From Candidatus Nitrospira inopinata (GTDB lineage: Bacteria > Nitrospirota > Nitrospiria > Nitrospirales > Nitrospiraceae), in the NCBI RefSeq assembly GCF_001458695.1, contig NZ_LN885086.1, positions 540,001 through 572,000 of the forward strand: 32,000 nt of DNA, in the 5' to 3' direction. Made by a program: the position numbers and the translations under genes. This document shows positions 6,346 through 30,023 of the stretch, piece after piece. The notes under the pieces were generated by a model. That model made no database searches. It saw only the letters and a list, made by a program, of their open reading frames with translations, and was not told the DNA's origin. Every line of letters begins with the position of its first letter. Position 1 is the stretch's first letter.

Positions 6346-6377
6346 CTGGATTTCACACCCCCTCTTCCTGTAGCAGA

Positions 6378-6635: not shown

Positions 6636-6638
6636 CAC

Positions 6639-9891: not shown

Positions 9892-9904
9892 CCGGCCCGC
9901 CTCA

Positions 9905-11227: not shown

Positions 11228-12066
11228 GACCCCTCACTGTTCGTATGTTCAACCGCCCAGGCTTCGCTCTCGCGTCGGAACGATGCCGCAGCGCCGTTGA
11301 TACCACGAAATCGTCGCACGACTTCGATCGGGATCAGCCCAAGCCGGTCGTGGAACTGTTTGGCCAACGACGAGGTATTGGGCGGGTGACCGGCTCCCTT
11401 CACCATCCCCTCCGCCGGGCCGAAGCAACCGTAACAGTCTCGCCCCATGCTCGGACAGATCGCGCCGCACCCGCCGCTGGTCACCGGTCCCAAACAAGGC
11501 ATCCCCTTGGCCACCACCACGCACACGTTTCCTCGCCGTTTGCACTCGAGACAGACACTGTCCGTCGGGATGCGAGGCCGGACTCCCGCCAACAGATCGG
11601 TGATGACGCGCCGCAACTGGTCTTTATCAATCGGGCAGCCCCTCAGCTCGTAATCGACCTTCACATGATCGGCAATCGGCGTGCTGGTGGCGAGCGTCCG
11701 AACGAAGTCCGGCCTGGGATAAACAACCTGTTTGTACGATTCAATGTCGGCCCAGTTGCGCAGGGCCTGAATGCCCCCAGCCGTGGCGCAGGCGCCGATC
11801 GTCATCAAAACCTTGGCCTGCTCCCGCACGGCCTTGATTCGCTCCCTATCCTCTTCAGTCGTGATCGACCCCTCGACCAGGGCGATGTCGTAGGGACCTG
11901 GGTCCATGCGGCTTGACGCCTCCGGAAAGTAGGCGATATCCAGCGCCTCCCCCAAGAGGAGCAATTCGTCTTCGAGGTTCAAGATGCTTAATTGGCAACC
12001 GTCGCAGGAGGCAAACTTAAAAACCCCCAATTTTGGCTTTTGCTGTCCTTTCATCAGAAGCGCCAT
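11224..12066 (-). CDS. hyhS: [NiFe]-hydrogenase small (delta) subunit, group 3 type, no Tat signal
   Basis: Contains the NuoB-like proximal cluster motif [10 protein letters not shown], further Cys clusters (GACATAGG; [11 protein letters not shown]; [19 protein letters not shown]) and no twin-arginine leader. Confidence 0.9.
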
Positions 12067-12075
12067 CGTCCTGCC

Positions 12076-14654: not shown

Positions 14655-15503
14655 TTAAGAATGACGGGACTTCGCCCCAAGGAACCGAGGCCGATCCCGC
14701 ACCGAGACCATCTTGACCAGATCCCGAACCGACAGCACGCCGACGATCTTGCCGTTCTCCCTCACGGCCAGGTGGCGCACGCCCCGCTCGGCCATCACGC
14801 GGCTGGCATCACGGATCGTCCGGTTGACGTCGATGCTCAGAAGCGGCGAGCTCATCATCGAGCTGACACGAATTGTTCCTCCATCCCGATTCGAGGCCGC
14901 CCCCTTCCGAATCAAATCGCTCTCGGTGACGATCCCGACCAGCTCTCCCGCCTCGACCGTCAACAAGGAGCCGATGCGTTTGTCTCGCATCTGCCGAGCC
15001 GCTTCAAGCACGGACGCCTCGCTCCCGATCGTCGCCAGGTCGGTGGCCATCAGGACGCTGAGCGGTCGATAGACGCGATCCAGTTCGCTTACGGGACCGC
15101 CCTCCGTGTCCACGAATGATCGGACCAGATCCCGCACGGAGATCAAGCCGGCGACTTCTCCTCCCTCCACCACGCAGAGGTGGCGAATGTGATTGGTCTC
15201 CATCATATGACTGGCGTCCAACATGGTGCGATCGCTCGCGATCGTGATGATGGGGCTATTCATCACCTGATCCACCATCGTGACCGTGGGATCCGTCCCC
15301 GCGGCGATCACCTTCCGCACCACGTCCGTTTCCGTCACGATTCCGATCGGTCCTCGACCCGGCTCGCCGGACTCGACCAAGACGCAACCGACGCGCCGGA
15401 CTCCCATCCGTTCCGCCGCGAACGACACGGTCGTGTCCCGCGGAACGACCTCCAAATAGCGACGCATGAAATCCTTAATGAGTCCGCCTTCCTGTCCACT
15501 CAT
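14655..15503 (-). CDS. Stand-alone protein with four CBS domains (two Bateman modules)
   Basis: Four repeats ending GIVTETDVVRK, GLISVRDLVRS, GIVTESDLIRK and GVLSVRDLVKM. The start is set at ATG 15503 (MSGQEGG..), which has AGGAG 5 nt upstream. The ORF-track ATG 15590 has no SD. Confidence 0.85.
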   Translation of the reverse strand: MSGQEGGLIKDFMRRYLEVVPRDTTVSFAAERMGVRRVGCVLVESGEPGRGPIGIVTETDVVRKVIAAGTDPTVTMVDQVMNSPIITIASDRTMLDASHMMETNHIRHLCVVEGGEVAGLISVRDLVRSFVDTEGGPVSELDRVYRPLSVLMATDLATIGSEASVLEAARQMRDKRIGSLLTVEAGELVGIVTESDLIRKGAASNRDGGTIRVSSMMSSPLLSIDVNRTIRDASRVMAERGVRHLAVRENGKIVGVLSVRDLVKMVSVRDRPRFLGAKSRHS

Positions 15504-15805
15504 CTCCACTCCTCGCTCCCGTTGAATGGCCTCCTCCCGGCGCAAGCCGGGAACGCCTCGGCCTTCTTGCGCCTCGGCCCATTTGCCCATTTTGATGGGC
15601 CGTCACTATACCTGATTATGATGAAACTCGCACCTGAGCCCATCGGGCTATAGCCGGGCCATAGCCAAAAAATCGGCTTCTCGACGAGAAGGCAACGCGG
15701 CGATACGACGCACGTTGCGACCGCGATCGTCCTCCATCGTCCGCTCCGCAGCCGAACCGCCTTTCGGTTGAATCAACGCGGAGTGTTGGTTACTCTCTAG
15801 CGGCA

Positions 15806-18800
15806 ATGAAACCGCTCAAAATTCTCGCCGTCGCCTGCGTCGCGCTCCTGATCATACTGGCAGGCACCGTAGCCGCGATTCGCTTCTTCTTTCCTGCCGA
15901 CCAAATCCGCAAGCAATTGGAGCGCACCTTGTCGGAGCACCTTCAAGGAACCGTGCGCATCGCCGCTTTGGAATGGGAGCTGCTGCATGGCATCCGCCTC
16001 GGTAACATCGAAATAGAAAGAAACGGCGTACCCCTCGCTCGGTTTGATCGCCTGTCGCTGCGCTACCGACTCCTCCCCCTTCTTCATGGAACAGTGGCCG
16101 TCGACGAGCTGGCGCTGATCCAGGCTGACGTCTTTGTTGATCTCGCTCTTTTCCCCGCCCCATCCCAAGCGGAACCACCCCCGCGCCGCGACGAGCCGGT
16201 CGTCCTTCCGACGCTCCCCCTGTCGGTCAACATCGAATCCATCCGCATTGAACACTCTCATGTCACCATGGTCGGTCATGACGACCTCCGTCTCACCTTG
16301 CGCGACGTCACTCTGACGTCCCGCTTGCACGCCGGCCCGAAGACCGCCGACTTGTCAGGGACTCTGGATATCGCCGACATCGAAGCGTTTGTGAACCAAC
16401 ACCGGTGGCGGCTCCCTCTGCACCTCGCCTTTACCCTCTCTGTCGATTTCCCGATGGAACGACTGGTTCTTGAACGGGTGGAGATCCGGTGCGATCCCGT
16501 AATCAGTCTCGCTGCCACCGGCCGGGTCGATCATCTTGTCTCCACCCCGACTGTGACGTTTTCTGTCCAAGAAAGCCAACTCGACTTGGAGGGGCTTGTG
16601 TCATTGGCACAGCCGTTTCTCCCTCCCCCCCTCGCTGGTGCGCGGCTGGCGGGAACGATCTCTCCCTCGCTTACCATCGCCGGCTCCCAAACCGACAGGG
16701 GATTCGACGGGGCGATCCGGCTCGACATCAACGGCCGTGACATTCGCGGATCGGCGCCCTCGTTTGGACTCTCCCTTGAGTCCACGTCTTTTCAGGTGCG
16801 GACCGGCGAGATTCCCGTTCACGCCAACCGTCCCGGTCCCATCCATGCCGACCTCTCGGTCAACATGACCGGCATCACCGCGGGAGCGGCCTCCGTGCGA
16901 GACTTGGCTTTCGGCCTTCAAGCCGACCGGAGCGAGGCGGGGCGACTCGCCGCCCATGTCACCATGAAGGGTCTGGTCTCCGCCGCACTTGAGCCGGCCG
17001 GGCCACGCCTCTCGGAGCCGCTCACGCTCGACGTCGAAACATCCGGAGACGAAACGGCCTTGTCCTTCTCTTTGACCAGGGTGGAAGCGACCGTCGGCGA
17101 CCTCGTGAGTCTCGTTGCGAACGGCACCGTCGGTCCGCTGGGAGAAGCGGGCAAACAAGCACAGGAACAACGCCCCTTTTCCTTGCGCGCCGCTGTCCGA
17201 AGCGACGCCGGTAAACTGTTTCGAGCCCTACCCCCCTCGCTCCGCCAAGGGTTCGGGCTCACGGCTCATGGCGCCCCCCAAACAGCCTCGCTCAACGTAA
17301 CCGGTTCGCTTGATGCCGACTGGCGTCCGCTGCGGGCCGAGGCCACCCTATCCCTCGACGCGGCGGACCTTCACGCCGTTCACGTGGTTTCGGCAGAACA
17401 GCGGCTTGAAGGGACCTTGGACCGGCTGACCCTTGCGCTGCGGACTGCGTATCACGCCAAGAGCGAATCGCTCAAGGGAACGGTTGACGGATTGATCAGG
17501 CTCTCACACCTGCGGCAAGGAACAACCGCAACCGTTGGAACTGTCTCCGTCACGCTCAACGGCGACATCAACGGCCGCGTAGGATCGGATTTTGCCGTCC
17601 GCCGCCTCACGGCCAGCAACCGCTTGACCTCGGAAATCCGCGATGTCCGATACGAAACTCCCACGATGACCGGGACATTCAACCACCTGACCGCCTCAGC
17701 CAAGGCCCACGGAGACCTGATTGACGGCCCCTACGTGCTGAACGAGGCCCGCCTCACCGTCGGACAGTTGCTGGACGGCAGGGTCTCCGGAACATTCAAT
17801 CCTCGAACCCAACGATTTGCCTTCGACATCGCCGTTCCCTCGCTCAACGTGGCTGAAATTCAACACCACATGACAGGACCTGCCGTGGAGTCCCTTGCAG
17901 CGGTCAAACCGTCAGGACAGCTCTCGATGCGAATCGGCGGCTCAGGGACGATCCCCACGCCGGACGACGTGGCCCAACTCACCATTCCCGTCCAGGCTTC
18001 CGCGCAGGTCGCCCTCCAGCACGTGGGAGGCTCGTTCCAAGGTCATGGGATCACAGGAGCAACCGGCACGATCAGTCTATCCGTCGAACCGCCGGAACAG
18101 CAATCGACCAAGCGCCAGGTGATCACAACCTCGTGGAAGCTCAAAACAGACCGATTGGATCTTGGCGGAGACGCCCCCGTTAAACACCTCGAGAACTTGG
18201 CGCTGGCGCTGGACGGGTCGATCGAATCCTTCGACCGGCTCACCCTTGAGCGATTCGTCCTCAGCGCCGACGGGCTCGACGCCTCGATCGACACGGAATT
18301 GTCGGGGATCAAACGGTTTCTGAACAGAAAGGAAGGGGCGCCTTGGCTCGAGGGGCTGGGTCCTCTCTTCGTCAAATCCAATCTCCAGGCTACGCTCGAT
18401 CTCGACCGGTTCGCGGATGCCGTCCGATCGTTCGGCGTGGCCGGGTCCGGGCGAGCCGGGCTCGCCCTGGTCCTCAATAAAAAAGAGCGGGGGCCGCTCG
18501 ACGTGCGGGTGACGGTGCTGCCTCATCGGTTGTCCATAGCCCAAAGAGAACAGCACGTCGAGGACTTGGACGGTGCCATCGAGCTCCGCAAGGTGCTTCA
18601 GTGGATGTCGCCTTCCGACAAACAGGCTCGTGAAGCCGAGTTTCGACCGACCGGCCTCCTTCCCGACCTTCATCTCACCGCGCCGGCGCGACGGGACATT
18701 CGTATCAGATTGGTCAAGGCCGGGCCCATCGAGGTCCGCAATCTGTCAGGACACCTGTTTCTTGACCAGAATCGCCTGGTCGTTCACAACCTGGCCATGA

Positions 18801-19363
18801 ACCTGCTCGGCGGAGGGCTTGGCGGCGAGGTCACGGGCACGGGCGGCAAGGCCTTTCGCGTGGACCTCCGGATGGAAGCAGCGGGACTGGACACGAATCA
18901 CCTGCTGCCGGCGGGCGAGCAGATCCCCGGCGACAGTCTGATCGATGCCACCGTGACTGGAACCCTCGCCTTCGACGACCAACAGGGCCGCCTCGATTTT
19001 GGCAAGAGCGTATTGGACCTATCGCTCACCAGAATCGGGCGTCACACATTGGACCGATTGCTCCGGTTTCTCGACCCGACCGGCGGCAACCCGTCGATCA
19101 TCGGCGCCCGTTCCGCAGTGAAGCTGGCGAATCCAGCTTCCGTCCGCATCACGATGTCCAAGGGGCTGGTCGCCATCCGCATACGATTTCAGGAGGGACT
19201 GCTCTCCCGTTTTGAGATGGACCGAATTCCAGCGGGCCAGATGAAACAGATCCGCGACCTCACGGCGACCATCCCACAATGGAACGATCTTCGTCGTCTC
19301 ATGGCCCTGTTGGGAGCAGAGCGATATGGAGTGGATCAAGCAGGCGGGTTTGTTTTAGAGTGA
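15806..19363 (+). CDS. AsmA-superfamily, YdbH-like intermembrane (inner-to-outer membrane) bridge protein
   Basis: N-terminal membrane anchor MKPLKILAVACVALLIILAGTVAAI followed by ~1150 aa of repetitive beta-rich sequence. The C-terminal part (..VHNLAMNLLGGGLGGEV..NHLLPAG..SVRITMSKGLVAIRIRFQ) resembles the YdbH C-terminal region as I remember it. A DUF1318/YdbL-like gene follows 4 nt downstream, as in the E. coli ydbH-ynbE-ydbL operon. Confidence 0.7.
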   Translation: MKPLKILAVACVALLIILAGTVAAIRFFFPADQIRKQLERTLSEHLQGTVRIAALEWELLHGIRLGNIEIERNGVPLARFDRLSLRYRLLPLLHGTVAVDELALIQADVFVDLALFPAPSQAEPPPRRDEPVVLPTLPLSVNIESIRIEHSHVTMVGHDDLRLTLRDVTLTSRLHAGPKTADLSGTLDIADIEAFVNQHRWRLPLHLAFTLSVDFPMERLVLERVEIRCDPVISLAATGRVDHLVSTPTVTFSVQESQLDLEGLVSLAQPFLPPPLAGARLAGTISPSLTIAGSQTDRGFDGAIRLDINGRDIRGSAPSFGLSLESTSFQVRTGEIPVHANRPGPIHADLSVNMTGITAGAASVRDLAFGLQADRSEAGRLAAHVTMKGLVSAALEPAGPRLSEPLTLDVETSGDETALSFSLTRVEATVGDLVSLVANGTVGPLGEAGKQAQEQRPFSLRAAVRSDAGKLFRALPPSLRQGFGLTAHGAPQTASLNVTGSLDADWRPLRAEATLSLDAADLHAVHVVSAEQRLEGTLDRLTLALRTAYHAKSESLKGTVDGLIRLSHLRQGTTATVGTVSVTLNGDINGRVGSDFAVRRLTASNRLTSEIRDVRYETPTMTGTFNHLTASAKAHGDLIDGPYVLNEARLTVGQLLDGRVSGTFNPRTQRFAFDIAVPSLNVAEIQHHMTGPAVESLAAVKPSGQLSMRIGGSGTIPTPDDVAQLTIPVQASAQVALQHVGGSFQGHGITGATGTISLSVEPPEQQSTKRQVITTSWKLKTDRLDLGGDAPVKHLENLALALDGSIESFDRLTLERFVLSADGLDASIDTELSGIKRFLNRKEGAPWLEGLGPLFVKSNLQATLDLDRFADAVRSFGVAGSGRAGLALVLNKKERGPLDVRVTVLPHRLSIAQREQHVEDLDGAIELRKVLQWMSPSDKQAREAEFRPTGLLPDLHLTAPARRDIRIRLVKAGPIEVRNLSGHLFLDQNRLVVHNLAMNLLGGGLGGEVTGTGGKAFRVDLRMEAAGLDTNHLLPAGEQIPGDSLIDATVTGTLAFDDQQGRLDFGKSVLDLSLTRIGRHTLDRLLRFLDPTGGNPSIIGARSAVKLANPASVRITMSKGLVAIRIRFQEGLLSRFEMDRIPAGQMKQIRDLTATIPQWNDLRRLMALLGAERYGVDQAGGFVLE

Positions 19364-19367
19364 TGGC

Positions 19368-19985
19368 ATGTTCAGAAAAACGACGGGCTACCAGTCGCCG
19401 GAAACAACCACGTCATTGAGCCGGAACCACGGCCTACGGGTGGCCATCGTGACCTACGGGATCACACTCGCCGGCTGTGGCGGGCCGCTCGTTGGTGTGA
19501 CGATCGTCGATGAAAAGACCGCGCTGGAAAATCAGGTCCTGGGCACCTACCAGGAATTGAATCAGGAAGTGCTGCTCGTCGCCTCGGTCCGTTACATTGA
19601 CCCCTCAGGCAAGTTAGTGCCGCAGCCTCCCATCCCACCGAGCAAAGAAGCGGCCATCCGCGCCATGCAACGGTCGGCTTTCAACAGGGACGACATCGAC
19701 CGGCTCAAGGCGGAAGAGATCCTGGGCGAAAATCTGGAGGGGAGACTGAGTATTCTGGCCCTGGAGAAGGTTTCCGCCGATCGCCAGGCCTTCGTCAAAA
19801 ACCTCGTGGAGGAGGAAAACGCCGACCGAGAGACACTCATGCAGCGGGTCTTGACGACCAACGAGACCTTCACGCCACAGGACCTGCCGAAAATACGACG
19901 TACCTTCGCGGCCCTCAACCGAGACCGAGCCCGTTCCGGAGACTGGATTCAACGGGAAGATGGGCAATGGGTCCGCAAACCCTAA
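19368..19985 (+). CDS. Lipoprotein with a C-terminal DUF1318 (YdbL-like) domain and an extra N-terminal segment
   Basis: Lipobox ITLAGC. C-terminal LKAEEILGENLEGRLSIL...EENADRETLMQRV...RARSGDWIQREDGQWVRKP matches the remembered YdbL pattern (GxVGE..GYL ... R.ALY ... G.W.Q...G.WV.K). Confidence 0.65.
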   Translation: MFRKTTGYQSPETTTSLSRNHGLRVAIVTYGITLAGCGGPLVGVTIVDEKTALENQVLGTYQELNQEVLLVASVRYIDPSGKLVPQPPIPPSKEAAIRAMQRSAFNRDDIDRLKAEEILGENLEGRLSILALEKVSADRQAFVKNLVEEENADRETLMQRVLTTNETFTPQDLPKIRRTFAALNRDRARSGDWIQREDGQWVRKP

Positions 19986-19998
19986 TCTGAGATGGTCT

Positions 19999-22900
19999 AT
20001 GAATCCGGCGGCGAAACGGATTTGGCTCTGGGCCTTGCTGACACCGGCGTTGGCGGCAAGCCCAATCCAAGCAGCCGGTGGGGACGGCAATCCCGAACGG
20101 CTGACGAGCCATCCGGCACTGGAGTACGCCGGCTCGCCTTCGGCTGACGGCCGTTTTCTTGCCTTTGTCTCGGAACAGAACGGCAACGCCGACATCTGGC
20201 TCAAATCCTTGACCGCCGGGATCTCCTCACTGCCCCGCCCCTTGACGACCCATCCGGGGAAAGATACGGCCCCGGCCTTGAACGAGAACGGCTCTTCACT
20301 CCTGTACGTGTCCTATCGATCGGACCCCCGCGGGGACATTTATCTGTTGGATGTCCCGACCGGCAAAGAGACCAGGTTAACCGATGAGCGACATGGCGAT
20401 TTGGCTCCGGCGTGGGGTGGAGACAAGGCCATTTATTTCTTGCGGGAACAGGAGAACTCCGGCGACCGAAGTCTCGTCCGCCTCTCACTCAGAACCGGGG
20501 CCATCGAACCGATCATTGAACGGGTGACATCCTACGCCGTGGGGCCGAATGGCACCATCGTTCATTCAGACGGCCGCCGATTATGGGTTCGCCTTCCTTC
20601 CTCATCGTCCGCTCCGCGCCCCCTCACGAGCGGCGACGTCGTGGACACGTCACCGGCGTTTGTGGACGACACCACGGTCGTGTTCACCCGCTATCAAGAT
20701 GACACGAACGGCGATGGGGTCATTGACGCGGACGATGAATCGTCCATTTATCTTGCAAGCTGGGATAAGGCGACTGGAGCACGAACCAGCCTCTACCGCC
20801 TCACCCCGGGGCAGGAGTTTCATGCCTATCCGGCCGCGAGCGGCTCGTATGTGTATTATTCGGACTTGAAGAGAAAAGACATCTATCGGTTGAACCTGAA
20901 GGAGTTTTTCGCGATCTATGCCGATCTGGCGCGCGCTCGCGAATCCGCCGCGATCCTGCTGGATCGGGGCGAGACCGAAACGGCCCTGCTCATCCTCACT
21001 AACATCTCCGCCAATCTCGCTTTGCAACTGCCGGCGGCGGAACGGGCCTCGTTCGACTTGGCACTGGTGGAGCTGTTGCGCGACGCGCGACGGTACGGAG
21101 CCGCCAAGGGTCTCCTGGCCCGCTCTGCGACGGCCGAGCCGAACGTCAGCGGGAACCACATTGGACCGATCGCCCGGGTGACATTGTCGGTCGTCCGCAT
21201 CGAAGAACGGGCCGCTCTTATGAGCCCGCGCGAACTCACACGGGCTGTCGAGGAGACGAGCAAGGAGCTGTCGGCCCTCGCGCGGCAGAGCGGACAGGAT
21301 GACACCCTTCGAGGAACCGTTTTTCTGGAAATCGGCCGCCTCCGTTTGTTGACCGAAGACCCGCTAAGCGCACTCGACGCCCTGACCCAAGTCGACAGCG
21401 TCGCCAATGACGAACTGCGGGCACGGGCCCTCTTCACCAGGGCCTCCCTGTACCGCCGCCTCGGAGAGCGGGACAAACTCCTGCACGTCCTTCTTGACGT
21501 CATCGCTTCATTCGGCGACCGAAGCTTTTGGGGCCGGAGGGCTGCGGCTCAAGCCGTGGCGATTGCCGACGACCAGGAAGACTTCCGAAAAGCCATCGCA
21601 TCCCTCACGACATTGGCCGAGGCCCATCGAACCCTTCCCTACCTGGCTGCCTCCGCCCTCCTACGCGCGGCGGACCGTGCCTACGAACAGGGCGAAGTGC
21701 TGAGGGCTGTCGAACTGTTGGACCGGGTGATTCGGGAATTCCCTGAACAGACCGCCCCGGTCGCCGACGCCTATCGGAAGAAGGGCATGATCCTCACCTC
21801 CGCCCAGCGGTTTGATGAGGCAGCCCATGCTTATGAAGCGCTGGTGAACTTGACCGGTCACAGTCAGGAGGAGCTGGAACGGGCGAAAACCCTGATGGTG
21901 CTTCAGTTGGTGCGGAGCGCACTTCGAAAACGGGAACTCGGGGAGGTCCGGATCGCCGCGAAGGACCTGCGGCAACTCGTCGAAACCTATCCCGATTCGG
22001 TCGAGGCCCATCGCGGCTACATCGAGACGAAAGTCATGCTCAAGGAATGGGACGAGGTGCGACAGTTCTACGAGAGCCTCGTCAAACAGGCCCCCGACAA
22101 CCCGACCTCTCGCTATGGACTCGGTCTGGTCCTGTCCTACGCCCCTCAGCCTAATTTCAATCTGGTCATCAAGACGATCCAGGAAGCGATCCGGCTCAAT
22201 CCCAAGATCTCTTACTTCCATCAAACGTTGGGCTGGGCCCATGAACAGACCGAACGGCTGGGCACACGCCATGCGCTCGAACAGGCGGAAGCGGAATATC
22301 GCCTCGCTCTGGAGCTGAACGACGGCTTTCTCTTTCCCGAGGTCGAGAACAATCTGCTGTTGAATCTCGGCAACATCTACATGAAGCTCGGCAATTTCAC
22401 GGAGGCCTATCGCCATTACGCGCGCCGCAAGGGCGGAGGCGTCGCCGATCGGGATCGCATGCGCGAACTGCTCTATCACAAGAATTACGGCGAGGCCTGT
22501 TTCAAAACGGGGCGGACGGAGGAATCCACTGTCCAGTACGAACGGGCTCTGGCGCTCGTGCCCGATGATCAGCCTCAGCTTCGCGCCGAGCTGTTGGAAC
22601 GACGGGGGCTGTCGCAACAAGAGGCCGGTTTGCACGCGCAAGCCGTCGAGTCCTTTTCGGAAGCCCTGGCGATCAACAATCGCCTGGGCCTTACGGACAA
22701 TCTGGCCCGCTTGAGCAGAAATGTCGGCGTCAATCTCTACAACCTGGGCGCCACGGTCTCCGACGGATCACGGGTCCCCCTTAAACGCGCCCTCAAAAGT
22801 CTGCTGGAGAGCCTGGAGACCGTCGATCGATTCGGTGTTACACAGAAAGTGGCAGGACCGGGGCTGATTCAGATCCAGGTCGGGCTGGGCGGAAACGCCG

Positions 22901-25900
22901 GCGGAGCCGCCGCCGGCTTTGATCGGCGCGGGGAAGAAAAGCTCCTGTTCAGCTTCATCGCCCGTGCGTACGAAGACTTGTCGGAGCCTCAACCGGCCAA
23001 GGAATACTACGAGAAGAAATTGGCTCTGATCCAGCCGGCCGGCGACTCACCGCAGGCGGTCGCGGCCCGCGCCGAGGAAGCGGTGGTGCTCAACCGACTG
23101 GCCGTGCTGAGCCATGCGCTGGGCCAAACCGACGAGAGCATCCGATACCTGGAGCGATCGCTCGCCCGCACGCGCGAGCTGGGGTTGGACTACGGCACAA
23201 CGGTCAATCTCTATAACCTCTCCCGCCTGGCGGCGGAGCGCCGCATGGCTGGTGAGGCCATCACGCCCAACTTGATCGACATTCTCACCGAGGGAGTCCA
23301 GGCCTTACTCCGAGACTCACAGCCAGACCGGTTGACTCTCTTGCTTCTTTCCAACGTGGCCTTTGTGTTGGCAGCGATGGACGAAGGCACGGTACCGGCA
23401 GGCCAGCCATTGGAGCTGGTCGCCCAAACGATCCACCATGTCGCGCGCGCGCGCCAGGATGCAGTCACATTCCTGAAGCGAGCCCTGGACCTCATTGAGC
23501 AGCACAAGGTCCTCTCAGGCGAAGAAGCCGATCGGCTGAAACTGATCCTGGCTCTGAACCTGTGGGATTTGGCAACCCAGGCAGGCCATGCCCCCACGGT
23601 GGAAAAGCTGGATGGCCTCATCACCGCCCTGGCCGCACAACGGCCGTCTCCCTTCGCCTGGCTGCCTCTGTTTCTGAAGGCGGAACGAACCGCCGATCTG
23701 AACCAGCGAACGGCGTTGCTCACGGAAGCGGCAGGTACGCTGCTTCGTGATCCCTCCCACCTGTTCAGCACGGGTGGGCCCGACACTCTGCCGTTGTTGG
23801 ACGGCCTGGCCTCCCTCACGACCGAGGCCTTGATCAACGGCGGCCGTATCGAGACGGCATTCGAGCTCGGCGAGCAACTCGCCATGCGAAAAACGGCCAT
23901 GCTGCTCGCCAAACGGTTCGGGGTTGATTTTCTTCTCTCCCACATCGGCGACTACGAGACAGAGTTCCGCACTATTGTGGAACAGATGCAGGCTGCTGCA
24001 AGCGAGGGGCAGACTCAGGAACTGAACCGCCTCAACGAGCAATTTCGTGAATTGACCTTCGCTCTGTATGAAGACTATCCCTGGGCCGTGTCGTATCTGC
24101 ACGAATATGAGCCGGCGCCTCATGTCCTGTCCGATGTGCTTCGGCCCGATACCCCCTATCTCAAAGTCACACCTGGCGCTCACGGCCTTCACGTCCTTCT
24201 TCACAGCGGCGAGACGGTCCGCCATGTCCATCTGCCACGCTCTTCAAATCAACCGCCGAGCTTCGATGCGGTGGTATCGCTCCTTGAGAAGGCTTCGGCC
24301 ATCTACCTGTCCTTGCCGACACATCTGCGTAACGTCATCCTCCCATGGCTCCCCAAACATGCCACCCTCGTGGAGGTGGCGTCAGTGTATGATGTGGTGA
24401 ACGCCTACCGGCTTCGAACTCTGTTTGCCTCCAGAGTCGCCATCGCCGGCGACGTGCCTTTCACCATGAAGGAAAGAGAGCCGGACAATACCTTCGTTCG
24501 GCTGACCGGCGACAGGACCCACGACAGGCCATTGTTGGAAAACCGGCATATCGTCGTCACCACGGGCCCCTACCACGACAACGGATTCGTCATCGGCTCC
24601 GACCGTGGTGTCCGTGAGCTGGTGCCCATCACAACCTTGGCAGGCAGACATCGCCATACGGCCATTCTGATGAACCATCGTGTCGATCCGGACACGATGC
24701 GGCTCATCCTGGCGCCGGCTCTGATCCGAGCCGGGTTCCCTCATATCCTGGCCACATCGGGAATGGCAGCAGGCGATCGGTCCGTCGCCGCAGACAAGTG
24801 GACACCGGACCACACACAGGCCTTCGTCATCTCCTATCTCCAATCGGTTCAATCCCAGCGAGTTGATCGCGCCGCGGCCGCTGCGCCGCGGGAAGTAACC
24901 AACCAGAAGGCCACACATCCTTCTTTCCGACTCTACGGCTACATCGGCATGACCCAGGAGGAAAAGGCCTCCTTCGCCGAATCCGAATATCAACGCGCCG
25001 TCTCCGACGCCGTGACAGCCTATCAAGCCAAACAGATGGAGATCGCCCTGCGCCGGGCGGAGGATGCCCTCTCCATCCTTCCCTTGACCAAGGCCGGTCA
25101 TGACTTTCCCAAATTGACCGAGTTGGCCGTGGAGGCGGCCTTCAAGATCGGAAACTACCGCGCGGCGGTAACACACCAGTCTCGGCTGGTCGAACAGCTC
25201 ACCACCACGGGAGATCAGGGGACCTTGGCGGAGGCCCGGTACCGTTTGGGCATCCTGTATTCCCGACTCGAAGAATTCCAACCAGCCCTGGTTCACCTTG
25301 AGGCCGCCATCAACGAGTGGCGGACGCGCGATGAACTGGACCGTTTGGCGGAGGGCGTCGCCACGTTGGGAGTGGTCAAGGAGAACATGGGAGCCTACCC
25401 GGAGGCGCTCGACGCCTTCGGACAGTCGTTTGAGCTGTATCAGGAACTGGGCGAGCCGTTGGACGTGGCGGCCCAGCATCGGCGGATCGGCCGCATCCAC
25501 TATCTCCGTCTGGGACGATATGAGCGGGCGCGGCATCACTTTGCCGCCGCGCTTGAGCAATACCGAAAACAGGGAGCGCGTCGTCTGGAGGCGGAAACCC
25601 TGTACGAGATCGGCCTCACTTATGACAAAATCGGTCTCTACGAGGAAGCGGACCGGCAGTACCTCGAAGGCCGCGCCATCGGCACGGAGTTGCAAGACTC
25701 AGCCCTTCTGGCCACCGGTTCGCTCTATCTGGCCAACACGGCCTGGTATCGAGGCCAGTATCAAGCGGCCTTCGACCATCTCGAAGCAGCGACCAAAGAG
25801 GCGGAACGGGCGCAAGACCCTCGACTCCCGATCATGATCGCGAACACGAGGGCGCTCCTGTACTGGACACTCCACGATCTCGACAAGGCCTTGGTCTATG

Positions 25901-27804
25901 CGGAACAGGCGGTTTCTCTCGCGGAACGGGCCGAGATCAAGGAGGAGATCGCGTCCTCCCATAACAATCTCGGCCTCATGTTGCGCGAGCGGGGCAAGCT
26001 CGACATGGCCTTGGACCATTTCGAACGGGCAAGACAGATCGATGAACAGCAACAGAGCCGATGGGGACTGGGCTATGACCACCGGAACATCGGCATCGCC
26101 CTGATGAAACTGGGACGGCTGGCCGACGCGCGAGCCCACTTCGAATCGGCGGAACGACACAGTGCGGCGATCAACAACATCGACAACTGGGTCAAGGCCC
26201 TGCTGGAACTGGGCAATGTCCATCGCGAGACCCAGGACTATGACACCGCGCTCGACTACTACCGCCGCGCCTATGACCTGTCCAAACGGTATCACATGAA
26301 GGACGTGCTCTGGCGAGCGGCGGCCGGGCAGGGGTCGGTGTTTCGGCTGAGCGGGAAGAAGACCGAAGCGGTCGAGCCCTATCGCGAAGCAGTCGAGATC
26401 GTCGAGAGCATGAGGGCCACCCTGACAGTTGAAGAGTTCCGCAACAGCTTCCAGACCAAGACCCAGGACCTCTATCGCGACCTGGTCATCCTGTTGATCG
26501 AACTGGGGCGCACCGACGAATCGTTCAACTATCTGGAACGGTCTCGATCGCGAAGTTTCATCGACCTTCTGGCCAACCAGAAGCTCAACTTCAAGACTCA
26601 AGCCGATCAACACCTGCTCGATCTGGTCGTGGATCTTCAGACGAAGCTCGACGCTCTCTCAAAAGAACAGGCTTCGTTCGAGCAGCCTCCTGTCGATCTT
26701 GTCACCCGCGTCCGACAAGCCAAGACGGCTTATGAGGAAGCATTGGTTCGCCTCAAACGGGCCAGCCCGGAACTGAGCACGTTCGTGGCGGTCGATCCAC
26801 TGACGATCGAACAGGCTCAGAAACTGCTTGAGCCGGGTGTCGGACTTCTCTCCTACAAGGTCACGGACGACCATGTCTATCTGTGGCTGATCACGGCGTC
26901 GGGAACCAGGTTCTATCGGACTCCGACCGCCGCTGGAGAAATCGATCGATTGGTCAGAACCTATCGGGCCAGGGTCCAGAAAATGGAATCGGTCTCCGAA
27001 GAGCTGAGCCGGCTTTCTCACCTGTTGATCGAGCCGGCTGCTCAAGACTCGGAGGGGTTGCGATATCTCGGTATCATCCCCGACGGGCCGTTGCACTTCC
27101 TCTCGTTCGCGGCCCTGCCTCTCAACACCGGCTCGTTGATCGACGCCTATCCCATCTTCTATTCGCCCTCGGCCTCGGTCTTGAAATTCACCTTCGCCAA
27201 ACGTAAGGACACGAAACACGCCAAAATCCTGGCGATCGGCAATCCGGATCTCGGCAATTACAATTATCAACTGCCGATGGCCGAATTGGAGGCGCGTAGT
27301 ATCCGATGGGAATTCCCGAATCTGGACATTCTCACGGGCGCGACGGCCACCAAGGAATGGTTGATCACCAACGTGTCTCGATACGGAGTCATCCATCTGG
27401 CCACTCACGGGGAATTCGACGACGTCAATCCTTTATTATCGTCGCTCTGGCTGGCCTCACCCAACCCGAACAACCGAAGGCTCACGGTGCGGGAGGTATT
27501 CGGCCTGACGCTGAACGCCGACCTCGTCACCTTGAGCGCCTGCCAGACCGGGCTCGGGCGGTTGGAAGCGGGCGAATTGATCGGTTTGAACCGCGCCTTC
27601 ATGTACGCCGGCACCCACACGTTGGTATCGGCGCTCTGGCGCGTGGACGACTTGGCGACCTCCCTGCTCATGAAACACTTCTATCGCAACTACGCGCGCC
27701 TGGACAAAGCCATGAGCCTTCGGCAGGCTCAATTATTGATCAAAAAGGACTTCCCTCATCCGGCCTATTGGTCGGGGCTGGTATTGGTGGGAGATTACCG
27801 GTAA
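19999..27804 (+). CDS. Giant exported multidomain protein: signal peptide, TolB-like PD40 beta-propeller, TPR array, degenerate CHAT-like module, second TPR array, active C-terminal CHAT (caspase-fold) protease
   Basis: Uninterrupted 7.8-kb ORF. The start is set at ATG 19999 (MNPAAKRIWLWALLTPALAASPIQAAG, a classical signal peptide). The ORF-track ATG 19960 overlaps the previous gene. PD40 repeats (SPSADGRFLAFVSEQNGNADIWL; NENGSSLLYVSYRSDPRGDIYLLDV). Dozens of 34-aa-type A/L/Y/G/R helical repeats. CHAT dyad VIHLATHGEF / LVTLSACQTG. Confidence 0.9.
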   Translation: MNPAAKRIWLWALLTPALAASPIQAAGGDGNPERLTSHPALEYAGSPSADGRFLAFVSEQNGNADIWLKSLTAGISSLPRPLTTHPGKDTAPALNENGSSLLYVSYRSDPRGDIYLLDVPTGKETRLTDERHGDLAPAWGGDKAIYFLREQENSGDRSLVRLSLRTGAIEPIIERVTSYAVGPNGTIVHSDGRRLWVRLPSSSSAPRPLTSGDVVDTSPAFVDDTTVVFTRYQDDTNGDGVIDADDESSIYLASWDKATGARTSLYRLTPGQEFHAYPAASGSYVYYSDLKRKDIYRLNLKEFFAIYADLARARESAAILLDRGETETALLILTNISANLALQLPAAERASFDLALVELLRDARRYGAAKGLLARSATAEPNVSGNHIGPIARVTLSVVRIEERAALMSPRELTRAVEETSKELSALARQSGQDDTLRGTVFLEIGRLRLLTEDPLSALDALTQVDSVANDELRARALFTRASLYRRLGERDKLLHVLLDVIASFGDRSFWGRRAAAQAVAIADDQEDFRKAIASLTTLAEAHRTLPYLAASALLRAADRAYEQGEVLRAVELLDRVIREFPEQTAPVADAYRKKGMILTSAQRFDEAAHAYEALVNLTGHSQEELERAKTLMVLQLVRSALRKRELGEVRIAAKDLRQLVETYPDSVEAHRGYIETKVMLKEWDEVRQFYESLVKQAPDNPTSRYGLGLVLSYAPQPNFNLVIKTIQEAIRLNPKISYFHQTLGWAHEQTERLGTRHALEQAEAEYRLALELNDGFLFPEVENNLLLNLGNIYMKLGNFTEAYRHYARRKGGGVADRDRMRELLYHKNYGEACFKTGRTEESTVQYERALALVPDDQPQLRAELLERRGLSQQEAGLHAQAVESFSEALAINNRLGLTDNLARLSRNVGVNLYNLGATVSDGSRVPLKRALKSLLESLETVDRFGVTQKVAGPGLIQIQVGLGGNAGGAAAGFDRRGEEKLLFSFIARAYEDLSEPQPAKEYYEKKLALIQPAGDSPQAVAARAEEAVVLNRLAVLSHALGQTDESIRYLERSLARTRELGLDYGTTVNLYNLSRLAAERRMAGEAITPNLIDILTEGVQALLRDSQPDRLTLLLLSNVAFVLAAMDEGTVPAGQPLELVAQTIHHVARARQDAVTFLKRALDLIEQHKVLSGEEADRLKLILALNLWDLATQAGHAPTVEKLDGLITALAAQRPSPFAWLPLFLKAERTADLNQRTALLTEAAGTLLRDPSHLFSTGGPDTLPLLDGLASLTTEALINGGRIETAFELGEQLAMRKTAMLLAKRFGVDFLLSHIGDYETEFRTIVEQMQAAASEGQTQELNRLNEQFRELTFALYEDYPWAVSYLHEYEPAPHVLSDVLRPDTPYLKVTPGAHGLHVLLHSGETVRHVHLPRSSNQPPSFDAVVSLLEKASAIYLSLPTHLRNVILPWLPKHATLVEVASVYDVVNAYRLRTLFASRVAIAGDVPFTMKEREPDNTFVRLTGDRTHDRPLLENRHIVVTTGPYHDNGFVIGSDRGVRELVPITTLAGRHRHTAILMNHRVDPDTMRLILAPALIRAGFPHILATSGMAAGDRSVAADKWTPDHTQAFVISYLQSVQSQRVDRAAAAAPREVTNQKATHPSFRLYGYIGMTQEEKASFAESEYQRAVSDAVTAYQAKQMEIALRRAEDALSILPLTKAGHDFPKLTELAVEAAFKIGNYRAAVTHQSRLVEQLTTTGDQGTLAEARYRLGILYSRLEEFQPALVHLEAAINEWRTRDELDRLAEGVATLGVVKENMGAYPEALDAFGQSFELYQELGEPLDVAAQHRRIGRIHYLRLGRYERARHHFAAALEQYRKQGARRLEAETLYEIGLTYDKIGLYEEADRQYLEGRAIGTELQDSALLATGSLYLANTAWYRGQYQAAFDHLEAATKEAERAQDPRLPIMIANTRALLYWTLHDLDKALVYAEQAVSLAERAEIKEEIASSHNNLGLMLRERGKLDMALDHFERARQIDEQQQSRWGLGYDHRNIGIALMKLGRLADARAHFESAERHSAAINNIDNWVKALLELGNVHRETQDYDTALDYYRRAYDLSKRYHMKDVLWRAAAGQGSVFRLSGKKTEAVEPYREAVEIVESMRATLTVEEFRNSFQTKTQDLYRDLVILLIELGRTDESFNYLERSRSRSFIDLLANQKLNFKTQADQHLLDLVVDLQTKLDALSKEQASFEQPPVDLVTRVRQAKTAYEEALVRLKRASPELSTFVAVDPLTIEQAQKLLEPGVGLLSYKVTDDHVYLWLITASGTRFYRTPTAAGEIDRLVRTYRARVQKMESVSEELSRLSHLLIEPAAQDSEGLRYLGIIPDGPLHFLSFAALPLNTGSLIDAYPIFYSPSASVLKFTFAKRKDTKHAKILAIGNPDLGNYNYQLPMAELEARSIRWEFPNLDILTGATATKEWLITNVSRYGVIHLATHGEFDDVNPLLSSLWLASPNPNNRRLTVREVFGLTLNADLVTLSACQTGLGRLEAGELIGLNRAFMYAGTHTLVSALWRVDDLATSLLMKHFYRNYARLDKAMSLRQAQLLIKKDFPHPAYWSGLVLVGDYR
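20101..20900 (+). other. TolB-like PD40 beta-propeller domain of the giant protein
   Basis: Repeated pattern [S/N]xDG..[LI]xFxS.R.G..D[IL][WY]..: DGRFLAFVSEQNGNADIWL, GSSLLYVSYRSDPRGDIYLL, GDKAIYFLRE, GTIVHSDGRRLWV, DDTTVVFTRYQDD..., GSYVYYSDLKRKDIYRL. Confidence 0.7.
26815..27801 (+). other. Catalytically intact CHAT domain of the giant protein
   Basis: GLLSYKVTDDHVYLWLITASG ... YLGIIPDGPLHFLSFAAL ... YSPSASVL ... ILAIGNPD ... HLATHGEF (His codon 27406-27408) ... LSACQTG (Cys codon 27541-27543) ... LNRAFMYAGTHTLVSALWRVDD ... HPAYWSGLVLVGD: the complete ordered CHAT motif series. Confidence 0.88.
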
Positions 27805-27826
27805 AGTACGAAAGGCGAGAGAGGCG

Positions 27827-28351
27827 ATGATGCGTGACCGACGTGTGTGTCTGGCGATGGTGACCTTGGGAACGGCCCTGGCGCTGGTTCCCTCTCTTCT
27901 GTTCGCTCAGACCATGTACGTGAGCCGGGATGAGGTCAAGCTGACAGAGGAAAAATCTCCCACCTCCAAGATCGTGGAGACGCTCCGTCGAGGAGCCCAG
28001 GTTCGGGTCATCGAGAAGAGCGACCGCCATTTCAAAGTGCAAGCCCCCTCCGGAAAAACCGGCTGGGTCTTTAAGTTTACGCTGAGCGATCAACAGGTCG
28101 GCGGAGGAAGCGGCGGGAATCTCCTCTCCGCGGTGACGGGCGACACCCGCATCGCGGCCCGCGAAGCCGGCACCGGCGGCAGCATCAGAGGATTGAAAGA
28201 AACCTCGGAACGGTACGCGACGACCAAACGAGTCGATCAGGCAAGCAAAGACGCAGTGCAGAGGATGGAAGACCGCATCATCCCGCGGGAAGAGCTGCTC
28301 AAGTTCCAGCGGGAAGGATCGGTCGGAGAATTTTCGGGGGAGACGCCATGA
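27827..28351 (+). CDS. Secreted bacterial SH3 (SH3b) domain protein with a Gly-rich linker and a charged helical tail
   Basis: Signal peptide MMRDRRVCLAMVTLGTALALVPSLLFA|Q. SH3b pattern MYVSRDEVKLTEEKSPTSKIVETLRRGAQVRVIEKSDRHFKVQAPSGKTGWVFKFTL. Its stop overlaps the start of the M48 gene (ATGA at 28348-28351). Confidence 0.7.
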   Translation: MMRDRRVCLAMVTLGTALALVPSLLFAQTMYVSRDEVKLTEEKSPTSKIVETLRRGAQVRVIEKSDRHFKVQAPSGKTGWVFKFTLSDQQVGGGSGGNLLSAVTGDTRIAAREAGTGGSIRGLKETSERYATTKRVDQASKDAVQRMEDRIIPREELLKFQREGSVGEFSGETP

Positions 28352-29322
28352 ACGGAACCATGAAGCGGATCATGAAGAGAACATGGATGGTCACGTTTGT
28401 GTCTCTCGCGTTGGTGAGCGGGACCGTGGACCAATCATGGGGGATTTTGGACCAACTGCTCTCGCCTCCCGCCGAAAAGAAACCAAGCCAACCAAAAGGC
28501 CAACCCCAACCCTCCGAGCAAAAGGGTCTGGTTGACGGGATCGGCGGATTGCTGGGAGCCAAGGAGAAAGACATCGGCCTCATCAAGAAGGGACTTAAGG
28601 CCGCCCAGGCCCTTCAGCCGATTGGGCTTGAAGAAGAGATTGCCATCGGCCAAGCCGTGGCCATTGAAGCGTTCGCCCGATTCGGGGGCGAATACAAGGA
28701 CGAAGCGCTCACGACCTATGTCAACTTGGTGGGAAGGACCGTCGCGGAGGTCTCGGATCGGCCAGAACTGACCTACCGGTTCGCGATTTTGAACAGCCGC
28801 GAGCAGAACGCCTTCGCGGCGCCGGGCGGCTATATCTTCGTCACGATCGGCCTGCTCAAGACACTCAAGAACGAGGCCGAGCTGGCCGGCGTGTTGGCGC
28901 ACGAGGTCGCGCACGTCACGCAAAAACACATGCTGAAGACGCTCCAGCGAAGCGCGATCCTGGCCAACGTGTCCGAATTCAGCTTGAGCGCGATGAACAA
29001 GGATCCCAAATTGTTCTCGAATGTCATCGATGCGGCGACCGACATGCTGTTCGAAAAGGGGCTCGACAAGGAGATGGAGTTCGAGGCCGATACCGTTGGA
29101 ATGGAATACACCTACCGAGCCGGCTACCATCCGAACGGTTTGAGAGATTACCTGGCCACGCTCAAGGCACAGGAGGGAACGGCCGACTCGCGATTCTTCT
29201 CAACCCATCCCTCGACCGGAGAACGATTGAGGCGGGCAACGGACACGGCGAGCCGTTACACGGGAGCAAGCAAGTACCCCTATCTGACTGAACGGTTTCG
29301 CTCGCGCATGGGCCCGGCATAG
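28348..29322 (+). CDS. Secreted M48-family zinc metalloprotease (LoiP/BepA-like catalytic domain, no TPR domain)
   Basis: Signal peptide, then NAFAAPGGYIFVTIGLL, the HExxH site LAHEVAHVTQKH, a downstream Glu (EFEAD) and the conserved FSTHPSTGERL tail. Confidence 0.9.
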   Translation: MNGTMKRIMKRTWMVTFVSLALVSGTVDQSWGILDQLLSPPAEKKPSQPKGQPQPSEQKGLVDGIGGLLGAKEKDIGLIKKGLKAAQALQPIGLEEEIAIGQAVAIEAFARFGGEYKDEALTTYVNLVGRTVAEVSDRPELTYRFAILNSREQNAFAAPGGYIFVTIGLLKTLKNEAELAGVLAHEVAHVTQKHMLKTLQRSAILANVSEFSLSAMNKDPKLFSNVIDAATDMLFEKGLDKEMEFEADTVGMEYTYRAGYHPNGLRDYLATLKAQEGTADSRFFSTHPSTGERLRRATDTASRYTGASKYPYLTERFRSRMGPA

Positions 29323-29439
29323 ATTGACTCCCTATCGGCTCGGACGCACGGACACCGAGGCGGGCGAATCTTTTTTGATGCCCGGGACTCCTACCAAGAG
29401 GGAAGCCCTTGTATAATGAAACGTAAAAGGAGGTGAGCA

Positions 29440-29601
29440 ATGACACAGGGTCTTGTTGAGGGAGCCCTCGCGATCAGCGCCGTGGCGTCGCTGCTGACGA
29501 TCTTTGTGATCTCCTTGGGAATCATGAAGGTCGGGACGCCGGAGAGGGTTGCCATTCCAGCAGAGAGCCGGCGTTCTCGTCGGAGAAGCGTTCGGGAATA
29601 G
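29440..29601 (+). CDS. Small single-TM protein (53 aa), hypothetical
   Basis: Below the ORF-track cutoff; translated by hand as MTQGLVEGALAISAVASLLTIFVISLGIMKVGTPERVAIPAESRRSRRRSVRE. A strong SD AAAGGAGGTGA ends 5 nt before the ATG. A perfect TATAAT at 29412-29417 lies 22 nt upstream, with no convincing -35. Confidence 0.4.
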   Translation: MTQGLVEGALAISAVASLLTIFVISLGIMKVGTPERVAIPAESRRSRRRSVRE

Positions 29602-29612
29602 CCCGCCTACCC

Positions 29613-29658
29613 CGGAGGCCGCAGTCTCCACACTGAGGTTCTCGGAACTCGGCCTCCG
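29613..29658. terminator. Hairpin between convergent small genes; possible terminator
   Basis: CGGAGGCCG (29613-29621) pairs perfectly with CGGCCTCCG (29650-29658), a 9-bp stem. The loop is a long 28 nt with a small inner CTC/GAG pairing. The downstream tract is T-rich but not a clean U-tract. Confidence 0.3.
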
Positions 29659-29726
29659 TCGGTGTCTCTGTCTTTCTCTTCCTGCCGCTTTCGAATCCCG
29701 CAACGGTCGGATTTCCCGTTTCCTCC

Positions 29727-30023
29727 TCAGCCGGGCGGGGTCGAGAGTTTCCACGCCACGATCAGCGCGATACCGGCAGCGATGATCGCAAGCCCGATCA
29801 TCCATCGGGTAAATTTCCGTTGCGCGTCGGCCACCACCTTCTCCATTTTCTTCTTGAGGGCCGGTTGGGAAGCCACATAGGTCTCGACCAATTCCTTGGC
29901 TTCCTTGAAACCGATCTGCCGCTCTCGGCGCACGGCCGTGATCGCTCCGATCAGATCGCCGCGTCGAAGCGCTTCGAGCGCCGCTTTGGGAAGATCGACT
30001 GAACGTCGGGTTATATTGGCCAT
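29727..30023 (-). CDS. Small membrane protein with an L7/L12-C-terminal-like motif plus a C-terminal TM helix; paralogue of 14314-14598
   Basis: DLPKAALEALRRGDLIGAITAVRRERQIGFKEAKELVETY closely resembles the AIK.VR...GLGLKEAK.LVE helix pair of the ribosomal L7/L12 CTD. It is followed by the TM helix WMIGLAIIAAGIALIVAW. The start is set at ATG 30023 (MANITRR..) by analogy with the paralogue. The ORF is open up to 30125. Confidence 0.6.
   Translation of the reverse strand: MANITRRSVDLPKAALEALRRGDLIGAITAVRRERQIGFKEAKELVETYVASQPALKKKMEKVVADAQRKFTRWMIGLAIIAAGIALIVAWKLSTPPG

Follow-up and report, generated by a model that had tools for sequence, protein, structure and literature searches.

A conserved five-gene envelope set with an AsmA-like protein, a lipidated YdbL-domain protein and a giant exported CHAT protein in Candidatus Nitrospira inopinata

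Candidatus Nitrospira inopinata is a comammox nitrifier. The window analyzed here is the whole stretch of 32,000 nucleotides (nt) at positions 540,001 to 572,000 of its contig NZ_LN885086.1 (assembly GCF_001458695.1, forward strand), and coordinates given without a locus number refer to it. Five open reading frames (ORFs) of the plus strand form one block at 15806-29322 and are called g1 to g5. They encode an AsmA-like protein, a lipoprotein with a YdbL/DUF1318 domain, a giant protein with a predicted CHAT protease domain, an SH3b protein and an M48 zinc metalloprotease. As a set, the five genes are conserved on chromosomes of diderm bacteria, and their adjacency is not due to chance. The core of the set is g2 together with the giant gene; g1 joins this core very frequently, and g4-g5 is a frequent accessory pair. 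The block and its bounds are as follows.

14655-15590, minus strand: CBS-domain gene, a divergent neighbor that bounds the block
15591-15805, unstranded: intergenic region (215 bp) from the CBS-domain gene to g1, presumed to contain the promoter of the cluster
15806-19363, plus strand: g1, AsmA-like protein of 1185 amino acids (aa), from sub-threshold Pfam matches and an orthologue profile
19368-19985, plus strand: g2, lipoprotein with a YdbL/DUF1318 domain, 205 aa, from Pfam and hhalign
19999-27804, plus strand: g3, exported giant PD40-TPR-CHAT protein, 2601 aa, from Pfam; the frame is open from 19960
27827-28351, plus strand: g4, exported SH3b protein, 174 aa, from Pfam SH3_3
28348-29322, plus strand: g5, exported M48 zinc metalloprotease, 324 aa, from Pfam Peptidase_M48
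29332-29805, minus strand: convergent ORF that lies 9 nt past the g5 stop and bounds the block

The original prediction described five same-strand ORFs with spacers of 4, about 13 and 22 nt and a single ATGA overlap, and direct reading of the junctions confirmed this. g1 and g2 are separated by 19364-19367, g3 and g4 by 27805-27826, and the stop of g4 overlaps the start of g5 at 28348-28351. The 13-nt spacer between g2 and g3 is obtained when g3 starts at its second ATG (19999). The protein read from this start is 100% identical over 2601 aa to RefSeq WP_062483032.1 / CUQ65570.1, and the longest g3 ORF, with its start at 19960, would overlap g2 by 26 nt. A consensus scan found one promoter-like site on the plus strand, inside g3 (27236-27264), and weak terminator-like hairpins inside genes only, with none at the gene junctions. 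The same scan found no sigma-70-like site in 15591-15805. It is plausible from this layout that the five genes are a single transcription unit. Each product had been predicted to begin with a membrane anchor, a lipobox or a signal peptide. Their N-termini, with export signals judged by hydrophobicity and motif heuristics, bore this out, and all five products look extracytoplasmic.

g3 is labeled in RefSeq only as a "CHAT domain-containing protein". It consists, in order, of a signal peptide, a PD40 propeller, a first TPR array, a family-specific middle region, a second TPR array and a CHAT domain. Structures were predicted with AlphaFold2, and its confidence score, the predicted local distance difference test (pLDDT), is given where available. 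The following parts of g3 were delimited.

20086-20928, plus strand: PD40 (TolB/Tricorn_N-like) propeller, about residues 30-310 (Pfam PD40, 55 bits)
24136-24948, plus strand: middle alpha/beta domain (about residues 1380-1650), flanked by the TPR arrays
24949-26418, plus strand: second TPR array, about 12 TPR pairs (Pfam TPR_12, TPR_1 and TPR_2; AlphaFold2 pLDDT 80-96)
27001-27795, plus strand: CHAT caspase-fold domain (Pfam CHAT, PF12770, E 7.8e-57, 193 bits against a cut-off of 24)
27406-27408, plus strand: catalytic His2470, in HLATHG
27541-27543, plus strand: catalytic Cys2515, in LSACQTG

Neither His2470 nor Cys2515 varies among 19 diverse giants whose identity to g3 falls to 22%. The AlphaFold2 model of g3 residues 1402-2601 is of medium confidence, with a pLDDT of 72. 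The top neighbors of this model in a Foldseek search were separase (9hn0_B, E 1e-11), DdvA (8rw5, E 2e-11) and craspase (8d9g_A, TMt 0.52); the top separase was the human one, and another DdvA entry (8rot_A) also lay near the C-terminal 1200 aa. These results indicate that the C-terminal part of g3 is a predicted TPR-CHAT cysteine protease of the separase/DdvA type whose His-Cys pair is intact. At the other end of the protein, the NCBIfam TolB propeller model matches residues 44-182, and precomputed Tricorn_N matches exist for homologues of g3. Two NCBIfam models, TolB and YbgF, match the propeller and portions of the first TPR array, with scores far under their cut-offs.

Residues 900-1700 of g3 are family specific. 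The middle domain within them aligned weakly but in register with the C-terminal half of CHAT (hhalign E 0.014), without the catalytic residues, and its model alternates strands and helices at a pLDDT of 40-68. It may be a degenerate CHAT-like or separase-like pseudo-protease domain. A second, dead CHAT is not claimed on these two values. About 60 full-length relatives of g3 were found, with 2.5-2.97 thousand amino acids (kaa) each. Identity runs from 95% down to 44% within Nitrospirales and is 24-38% in other phyla, and the length is uniform. A search with the middle region against 1.84 billion representatives gave 16 clusters at E<=1e-30, or roughly 30 giants altogether. The giant family is phylogenetically wide but rare. 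In Nitrospirales the giants have an ordinary signal peptide. Most of those of delta- and Myxococcota-type lineages have a lipobox instead, which was seen on about 8-10 of 14 distant giants. The lipobox or signal peptide on these homologues therefore gives independent support for export.

g2 has the lipobox LAGC, and its Cys37 (codon at 19476) is invariant in 14 homologues. The N-terminal half of the protein is conserved, with the motif ERTALENQVLGTY. Residues 109-204 are a YdbL/DUF1318 domain (Pfam 42 bits against a cut-off of 27). The g2 family aligned with E. coli YdbL at an hhalign probability of 95% (E 2.5e-8), and the YdbL crystal structure PDB 28oj was matched at E 0.006. The C-terminal ending is GQWVRKP in g2 and GKWVRKF in YdbL. 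When the N-terminal half was compared with YnbE, hhalign aligned the lipobox only (probability 6%). The idea that g2 is a YnbE-YdbL fusion was dropped as a sequence claim on this ground, and such a fusion is kept as a structural possibility. g2 is a two-part lipidated protein and something other than a plain YdbL.

The sole transmembrane-like segment of g1 is an N-terminal helix at residues 2-28. Residues 2-170 match Pfam YhdP (E 2.4e-10), AsmA (1.6e-6) and DUF748 (9.7e-6), all under the gathering cut-offs. The best NCBIfam match is the Leptospira GspN model with 48.8 bits against a cut-off of 50, and it covers the N-terminus only. A profile built from 15 g1 orthologues pulls proteins annotated as AsmA or TamB. 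The AlphaFold2 model, made from an alignment of 15 sequences, shows the helix at 2-28 and then about 60 long strands, with a mean pLDDT of 70 and a predicted template modeling score (pTM) of 0.42. Its top Foldseek neighbors in the Protein Data Bank (PDB) were the lipid-handling beta-sheet proteins ApoB100, the BLTP1 homologue LPD-3, LptD and TamB, with TM-scores of about 0.1. g1 evolves fast, with 16-29% identity between phyla. Because of the sub-threshold AsmA, YhdP and DUF748 matches, the orthologue profile, the modeled strands and the Foldseek neighbors, g1 is considered AsmA-like in its N-terminus and its overall architecture, with a putative long beta groove across the periplasm. It has the inner-membrane anchor and the AsmA/YhdP/TamB-type N-terminal homology of AsmA-like/repeating beta-groove (RBG) proteins. 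The domain labels given earlier to the cluster held for DUF1318, PD40, TPR, CHAT, SH3_3 and Peptidase_M48 in profile hidden Markov model (HMM) searches, but the YdbH-like label of g1 did not. The identity of g1 with YdbH was rejected, as Pfam gave no PF11739 match and hhalign found nothing in common with E. coli YdbH. In Geobacter sp. OR-1 (locus L014, 5617-9226), g1 is present as two ORFs of 333 aa and 846 aa, a split that may reflect a frameshift, a pseudogene or an error of assembly.

g4 has a signal-peptide-like N-terminus, a Gly-rich linker and a conserved C-terminal half. Its SH3_3 match (PF08239) is marginal, with 30.8 bits against a cut-off of 27, and the domain is kept in 17 orthologues. 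The motif SIRGL at residues 119-123 (28181-28195) is invariant across these 17 orthologues of several phyla, in a linker and C-terminal region that are otherwise variable. It is a candidate protease cleavage or docking site. g5 also has a signal-peptide-like N-terminus, and its PF01435 match is strong (111.9 bits against a cut-off of 20.3, E 4.4e-32). The zinc-site motif HEVAH lies at 28900-28914 and the distal Glu in EFEAD; H185, E186, H189 and E244 are invariant in 18 orthologues. g4 and g5 overlap by 4 nt in 16 of the 25 loci among those listed, and from this arrangement they are judged a translationally coupled pair.

The gene neighborhood was studied by exact look-up and by a scan of one genome per species, and annotation was done with HMMs built from orthologues. 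Tallies from the collection scans are samples and not censuses. Two pairs of metagenome loci (L089/L090 and L120/L123) are redundant, and the Nitrotoga context was read on L168, a contig related to Ca. Nitrotoga sp. BS. Among the matches listed, g2 lies directly 5' of 25 of the 29 giants with assessable upstream sequence, and often overlaps the start of the giant gene. The loci with g2 and a giant span Nitrospirota, Desulfobacterota-type lineages, Sumerlaeota, KSB1, Magnetococcales and the Nitrotoga-like contig. g1 precedes g2 in nearly all of those 25 loci; contig ends interrupt in L009 and L027, and L015 has none. g4-g5 is present in 18 giant loci of the forward set, again among the matches listed. 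In the reverse test on metagenomes, a giant follows the g2-like gene in 30 of the 58 assessable loci among the matches listed. The supposition that every g2-like gene adjoins a giant failed, since the other 28 belong to one FabF-linked marine lineage without a giant nearby. Apparent giants in L118 and L163 were generic TPR proteins.

The full five-gene order was found in the Nitrospirales Ca. Nitronereus thalassa (L001), Nitrospira sp. T9 (L008) and L026. It was also found in Thermodesulfobacteriota (L003), Geomonas oryzae S43 (L012), Geobacter sp. OR-1 (L014), Geobacterales- or Desulfuromonadaceae-type metagenome-assembled genomes (MAGs) including L016, L017 and L019, and the Nitrotoga-like contig L168. 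In Sumerlaeota (L004) and an unclassified MAG (L084) the order is g4-g5-g1-g2-g3, and this permuted order argues for selection on co-location and not for inherited order. Magnetococcales, KSB1 and others have g1-g2-g3 alone. The flanking genes vary between lineages, and therefore the module stops at g1-g5. Ordinary TPR-CHAT proteins of 0.8-1.3 kaa, which score below 620 with the HMM against more than 850 for the giants, never had g1, g2 or g4 beside them in about 55 loci. In total, the genes were co-located in more than 50 independent loci across several phyla. They thus co-occur beyond this lineage, and the refuting outcome named with the original prediction, homologues that are never adjacent in other genomes, was not observed. 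The five-gene composition recurs in several lineages, but it is not an invariant unit, and the tightest pair is g2 with the giant.

In the FabF-linked loci (L116-L165, for example L135 8716-10555), a g2-like lipoprotein that is 43-53% identical to g2 directly follows a FabF-like beta-ketoacyl synthase. These synthases are 72-100% identical to each other, g1 is absent, and an unrelated TPR protein comes next in some of the loci. In Nitrospira sp. T9 (L008 7996-9200), an insert of 1.2 kb with repeated sequence and a small ORF lies between g1 and g2. A GIY-YIG-type motif (YYVYIM...GTLYTGVTNDL...YEH) was seen in this ORF by eye only. The insert is probably a selfish element inside the cluster.

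Upstream of the block, on the minus strand at 4012-14042, the window contains a [NiFe]-hydrogenase cluster with its maturation genes, which has no relation to the five-gene set. Its layout presumably resembles that of a group 3b (sulfhydrogenase-type) enzyme.

4012-5067, minus strand: hypE-like gene
5239-6345, minus strand: hypD
6639-9020, minus strand: hypF
9346-9927, minus strand: HycI-type protease
9905-11227, minus strand: hydrogenase large subunit
11224-12066, minus strand: hydrogenase small subunit
12076-13026, minus strand: FAD/NAD and Fe-S subunit
12906-14042, minus strand: 4Fe-4S subunit

A gene for an MscS-type channel lies no more than about 15 kb from the cluster in N. inopinata (430-1326) and in Ca. 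Nitronereus thalassa (L001 21067-21894). It stands on different sides in the two genomes, and this proximity is probably a coincidence.

Several known systems share parts of this set. In E. coli ydbH-ynbE-ydbL, as here, the gene of an AsmA-like protein anchored in the inner membrane is followed within a few bases by a gene with a DUF1318/YdbL domain (PMC11126948). A lipoprotein partner is present in both, and all products are extracytoplasmic. The YdbH bridge is capped by an outer-membrane lipoprotein, which YdbL binds (PMC11126948; bioRxiv 10.64898/2026.03.16.712125), and E. coli YdbL is degraded by DegP unless it is bound to YnbE (bioRxiv 10.64898/2026.03.16.712125). Of the marks of the YdbH subfamily, the neighboring DUF1318/YdbL-domain protein was found here, and PF11739 or YdbH similarity and YnbE were not. 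In contrast to the E. coli system, the YdbL domain is itself lipidated and preceded by a conserved N-terminal half of about 70 aa, YnbE is absent, and g1 has 1185 aa compared with 879 aa for YdbH, to which it has no detectable similarity. The set also contains three extra genes, for the giant CHAT protease, the SH3b protein and the M48 protease. GspN/PulN of type II secretion is also AsmA-like, a beta-groove protein encoded beside its lipoprotein clients (PMC12802150). In contrast, g1 is about four times the length of the 280-position GspN model and matches only its first 94 positions, and no genes of a type II secretion system (T2SS) are nearby.

The giant shares with separase, Csx29/craspase and DdvA a TPR superhelix followed by a CHAT caspase fold with a His-Cys pair. 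CHAT proteases had been described in the original prediction as best known from the cytoplasm, but DdvA shows that a TPR-CHAT module can work in the periplasm and is a structural precedent (PMC11506125). The giant differs in its 2.6 kaa and in being soluble or lipid-anchored, with no transmembrane helix and no anti-sigma domain. It has in addition a PD40 propeller at its N-terminus, a middle region specific to the family and a second TPR array, and its partners are AsmA-like and YdbL-like rather than CRISPR, securin or sigma factors. Its propeller and parts of the first TPR array resemble TolB (PD40) and CpoB/YbgF (TPR), which are periplasmic envelope scaffolds. In the giant, however, these domains are fused with a protease, and no tol or pal genes are adjacent. 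g5 shares the HExxH...E zinc site, the export signal and the envelope location with BepA, LoiP and YcaL, and BepA is its best NCBIfam match (E 2e-29). It is not an equivalog of BepA (102.7 bits against 570) or LoiP (47.5 bits against 365), has no C-terminal TPR, and is always paired with a dedicated SH3b gene that usually overlaps it.

Each part of the set belongs to a known family (AsmA-like, DUF1318/YdbL, PD40, TPR-CHAT, SH3b, M48), and the combination appears to be undescribed. The earlier statement that no described system has such a composition agrees with the searchable literature, where none was found. Searches for CHAT with AsmA, DUF1318 or Nitrospira gave nothing relevant, and the lone match for CHAT and "AsmA" was the author name Otero-Asman.

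Taken together, the set may be a chromosomal envelope machine that joins an AsmA/YdbL-type module to regulated periplasmic proteolysis through a mechanism that we infer, and we give this reading a probability of about 45%. g1 and g2 would be a variant of the YdbH/YnbE/YdbL inner-to-outer-membrane module, with lipidated g2 at its outer-membrane end. g2 might also tether or chaperone the giant protease at the module, because its gene almost always directly precedes, and often overlaps, that of the giant. The propeller and TPR arrays of the giant would bind an envelope ligand or a client protein, and this binding would license CHAT cleavage of the giant itself, of g2, of g4 or of another envelope protein. 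The SH3b/M48 pair would be an accessory second protease stage. The net outcome would be a regulated proteolysis in the periplasm, linked to the homeostasis of outer-membrane lipids or lipoproteins, and not mobile defense. More tentatively, AsmA-like g1 and lipidated g2 might be coupled physically and functionally to a giant periplasmic separase-like protease in an undescribed trans-envelope machine, which we consider possible though rather doubtful. Such a machine could carry out a protease-gated assembly or disassembly of an intermembrane lipid bridge, or it could serve as a private route of the AsmA type by which a 290-kDa protease complex is placed at the outer membrane, with SH3b/M48 as a second stage.

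Several observations weigh against the reading as an envelope machine. The model of g1 is of medium confidence and its Foldseek TM-scores are low (about 0.1), PF11739 was not found in g1 at E<=0.01 in Pfam, and the 15 g1 orthologues aligned with E. coli YdbH at an hhalign probability of 0.1%. There is no ynbE ORF, as g1 and g2 are just 4 nt apart. A g2-like gene exists without a giant in the FabF-linked marine lineage, g1 is absent beside g2 and the giant in six loci (L015 of the forward set and L092, L103, L142, L146 and L157 of the reverse set), and about eight loci whose sequence extends far enough past the giant have no g4-g5. In three delta- or Myxococcota-type loci (L021 7258-9843, L022 7242-9830, L170 4406-6994), a HAMP/MCP chemoreceptor of 861-862 aa stands directly 5' of the giant instead of g1-g2. 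A Nitrospinota giant (L010) has none of g1, g2, g4 and g5 nearby. The single transcription unit is a prediction from the DNA sequence, and the protein contacts, the substrate and the lipid transport are conjectural.

Other readings give g1 a different role. It could be a GspN-like "slide" and not a phospholipid bridge, which shields the acyl chains of g2 and of lipidated giants and delivers or holds the protease complex at the outer membrane or surface; the proteases would then be the payload and g1-g2 the logistics. GspN/PulN is needed for the surface localization of lipoproteins (PMC12802150), the GspN model comes closest to g1 in NCBIfam (48.8 against 50 bits), g2 is lipidated throughout the family, and so are about 8-10 of the 14 distant giants by their lipobox. 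The fast evolution of g1 (16-29% identity between phyla) is expected of a partner-specific accessory protein. Delivery of this kind is nevertheless unlikely: the GspN match is confined to the generic AsmA N-terminus, giants of Nitrospirales, g3 among them, start with an ordinary signal peptide and lack a lipobox, neither secretin nor T2SS genes occur in or beside the cluster, and six loci with g2 and a giant lack g1. The giant could instead be a signal-activated sensor-protease like DdvA, an anti-sigma factor of M. xanthus for which a signal-activated periplasmic TPR-CHAT protease was proposed from its structure (PMC11506125). Its cleavage would be relayed across the inner membrane via g1 here and via a chemoreceptor elsewhere. 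Foldseek places the C-terminal 1200 aa of g3 beside DdvA (8rw5, 8rot_A) and separase, and the chemoreceptors of L021, L022 and L170, which have a large periplasmic part, hint at chemotaxis-type signaling. In Magnetococcales, a 473-aa FecR-domain protein lies immediately 5' of g1 on the same strand (L002 4148-5569). However, the cluster has no conserved sigma or anti-sigma factor, kinase or transcription factor beside it, no signaling output is known for AsmA-like proteins, and the chemoreceptor context is a minority variant that possibly represents one lineage, so that a sensor-protease is distinctly improbable.

CHAT and TPR domains are common in conflict systems. Systems of this type are discussed in PMC8195603 and PMC10907252, and a suicide or conflict module had also been proposed for this cluster. 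In an envelope-targeted conflict or abortive-infection module, the TPR arrays and the propeller would sense an invader or damage, and the proteases would destroy envelope components. The fast divergence of g1 and a caspase (Peptidase_C14) gene near the giant of L170 would fit with this. PADLOC, however, gave only a generic TPR model on g3 and no match for the other four proteins, and neither g2 nor the first 1000 aa of the giant had homologues in 72,556 plasmids. The flanks are housekeeping genes (hydrogenase/hyp genes, leuA, fabF, aroA and others), the length of the giants is uniform, identity roughly tracks taxonomy, and no toxin, nuclease or NTPase partner is present. With the PADLOC and plasmid searches negative, the defense-system reading was rejected, and we regard it as highly improbable. 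A chance or merely historical juxtaposition of unrelated envelope genes would fit with the fact that each family also occurs alone, as in the FabF-linked g2-like genes, generic M48 proteins and SH3b proteins. It is effectively refuted by the neighborhood data, because co-location holds in more than 50 loci across phyla, with a permuted order, unrelated flanks and conserved start/stop overlaps.

The assembly, regulation and partners of AsmA-like bridges outside E. coli are an open question in outer-membrane biogenesis. The role of CHAT proteases outside the cytoplasm is almost unexplored, and no structural example other than DdvA was found here. A conserved set that joins AsmA-like bridges and CHAT proteases would be a concrete test system for both fields. 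Besides MAGs, the carriers of the cluster include the isolates Geomonas oryzae S43, Geobacter sp. OR-1, Ca. Nitrospira inopinata and Ca. Nitrotoga sp. BS. It is a candidate envelope function common to nitrite oxidizers of unrelated phyla, with the cluster in Nitrospira and Nitrotoga and a lone giant gene in a Nitrospinota MAG. If g1 and g2 are indeed coupled to the giant in a trans-envelope machine, RBG/AsmA-type proteins would for the first time be linked to regulated proteolysis by an enzyme with a caspase fold.

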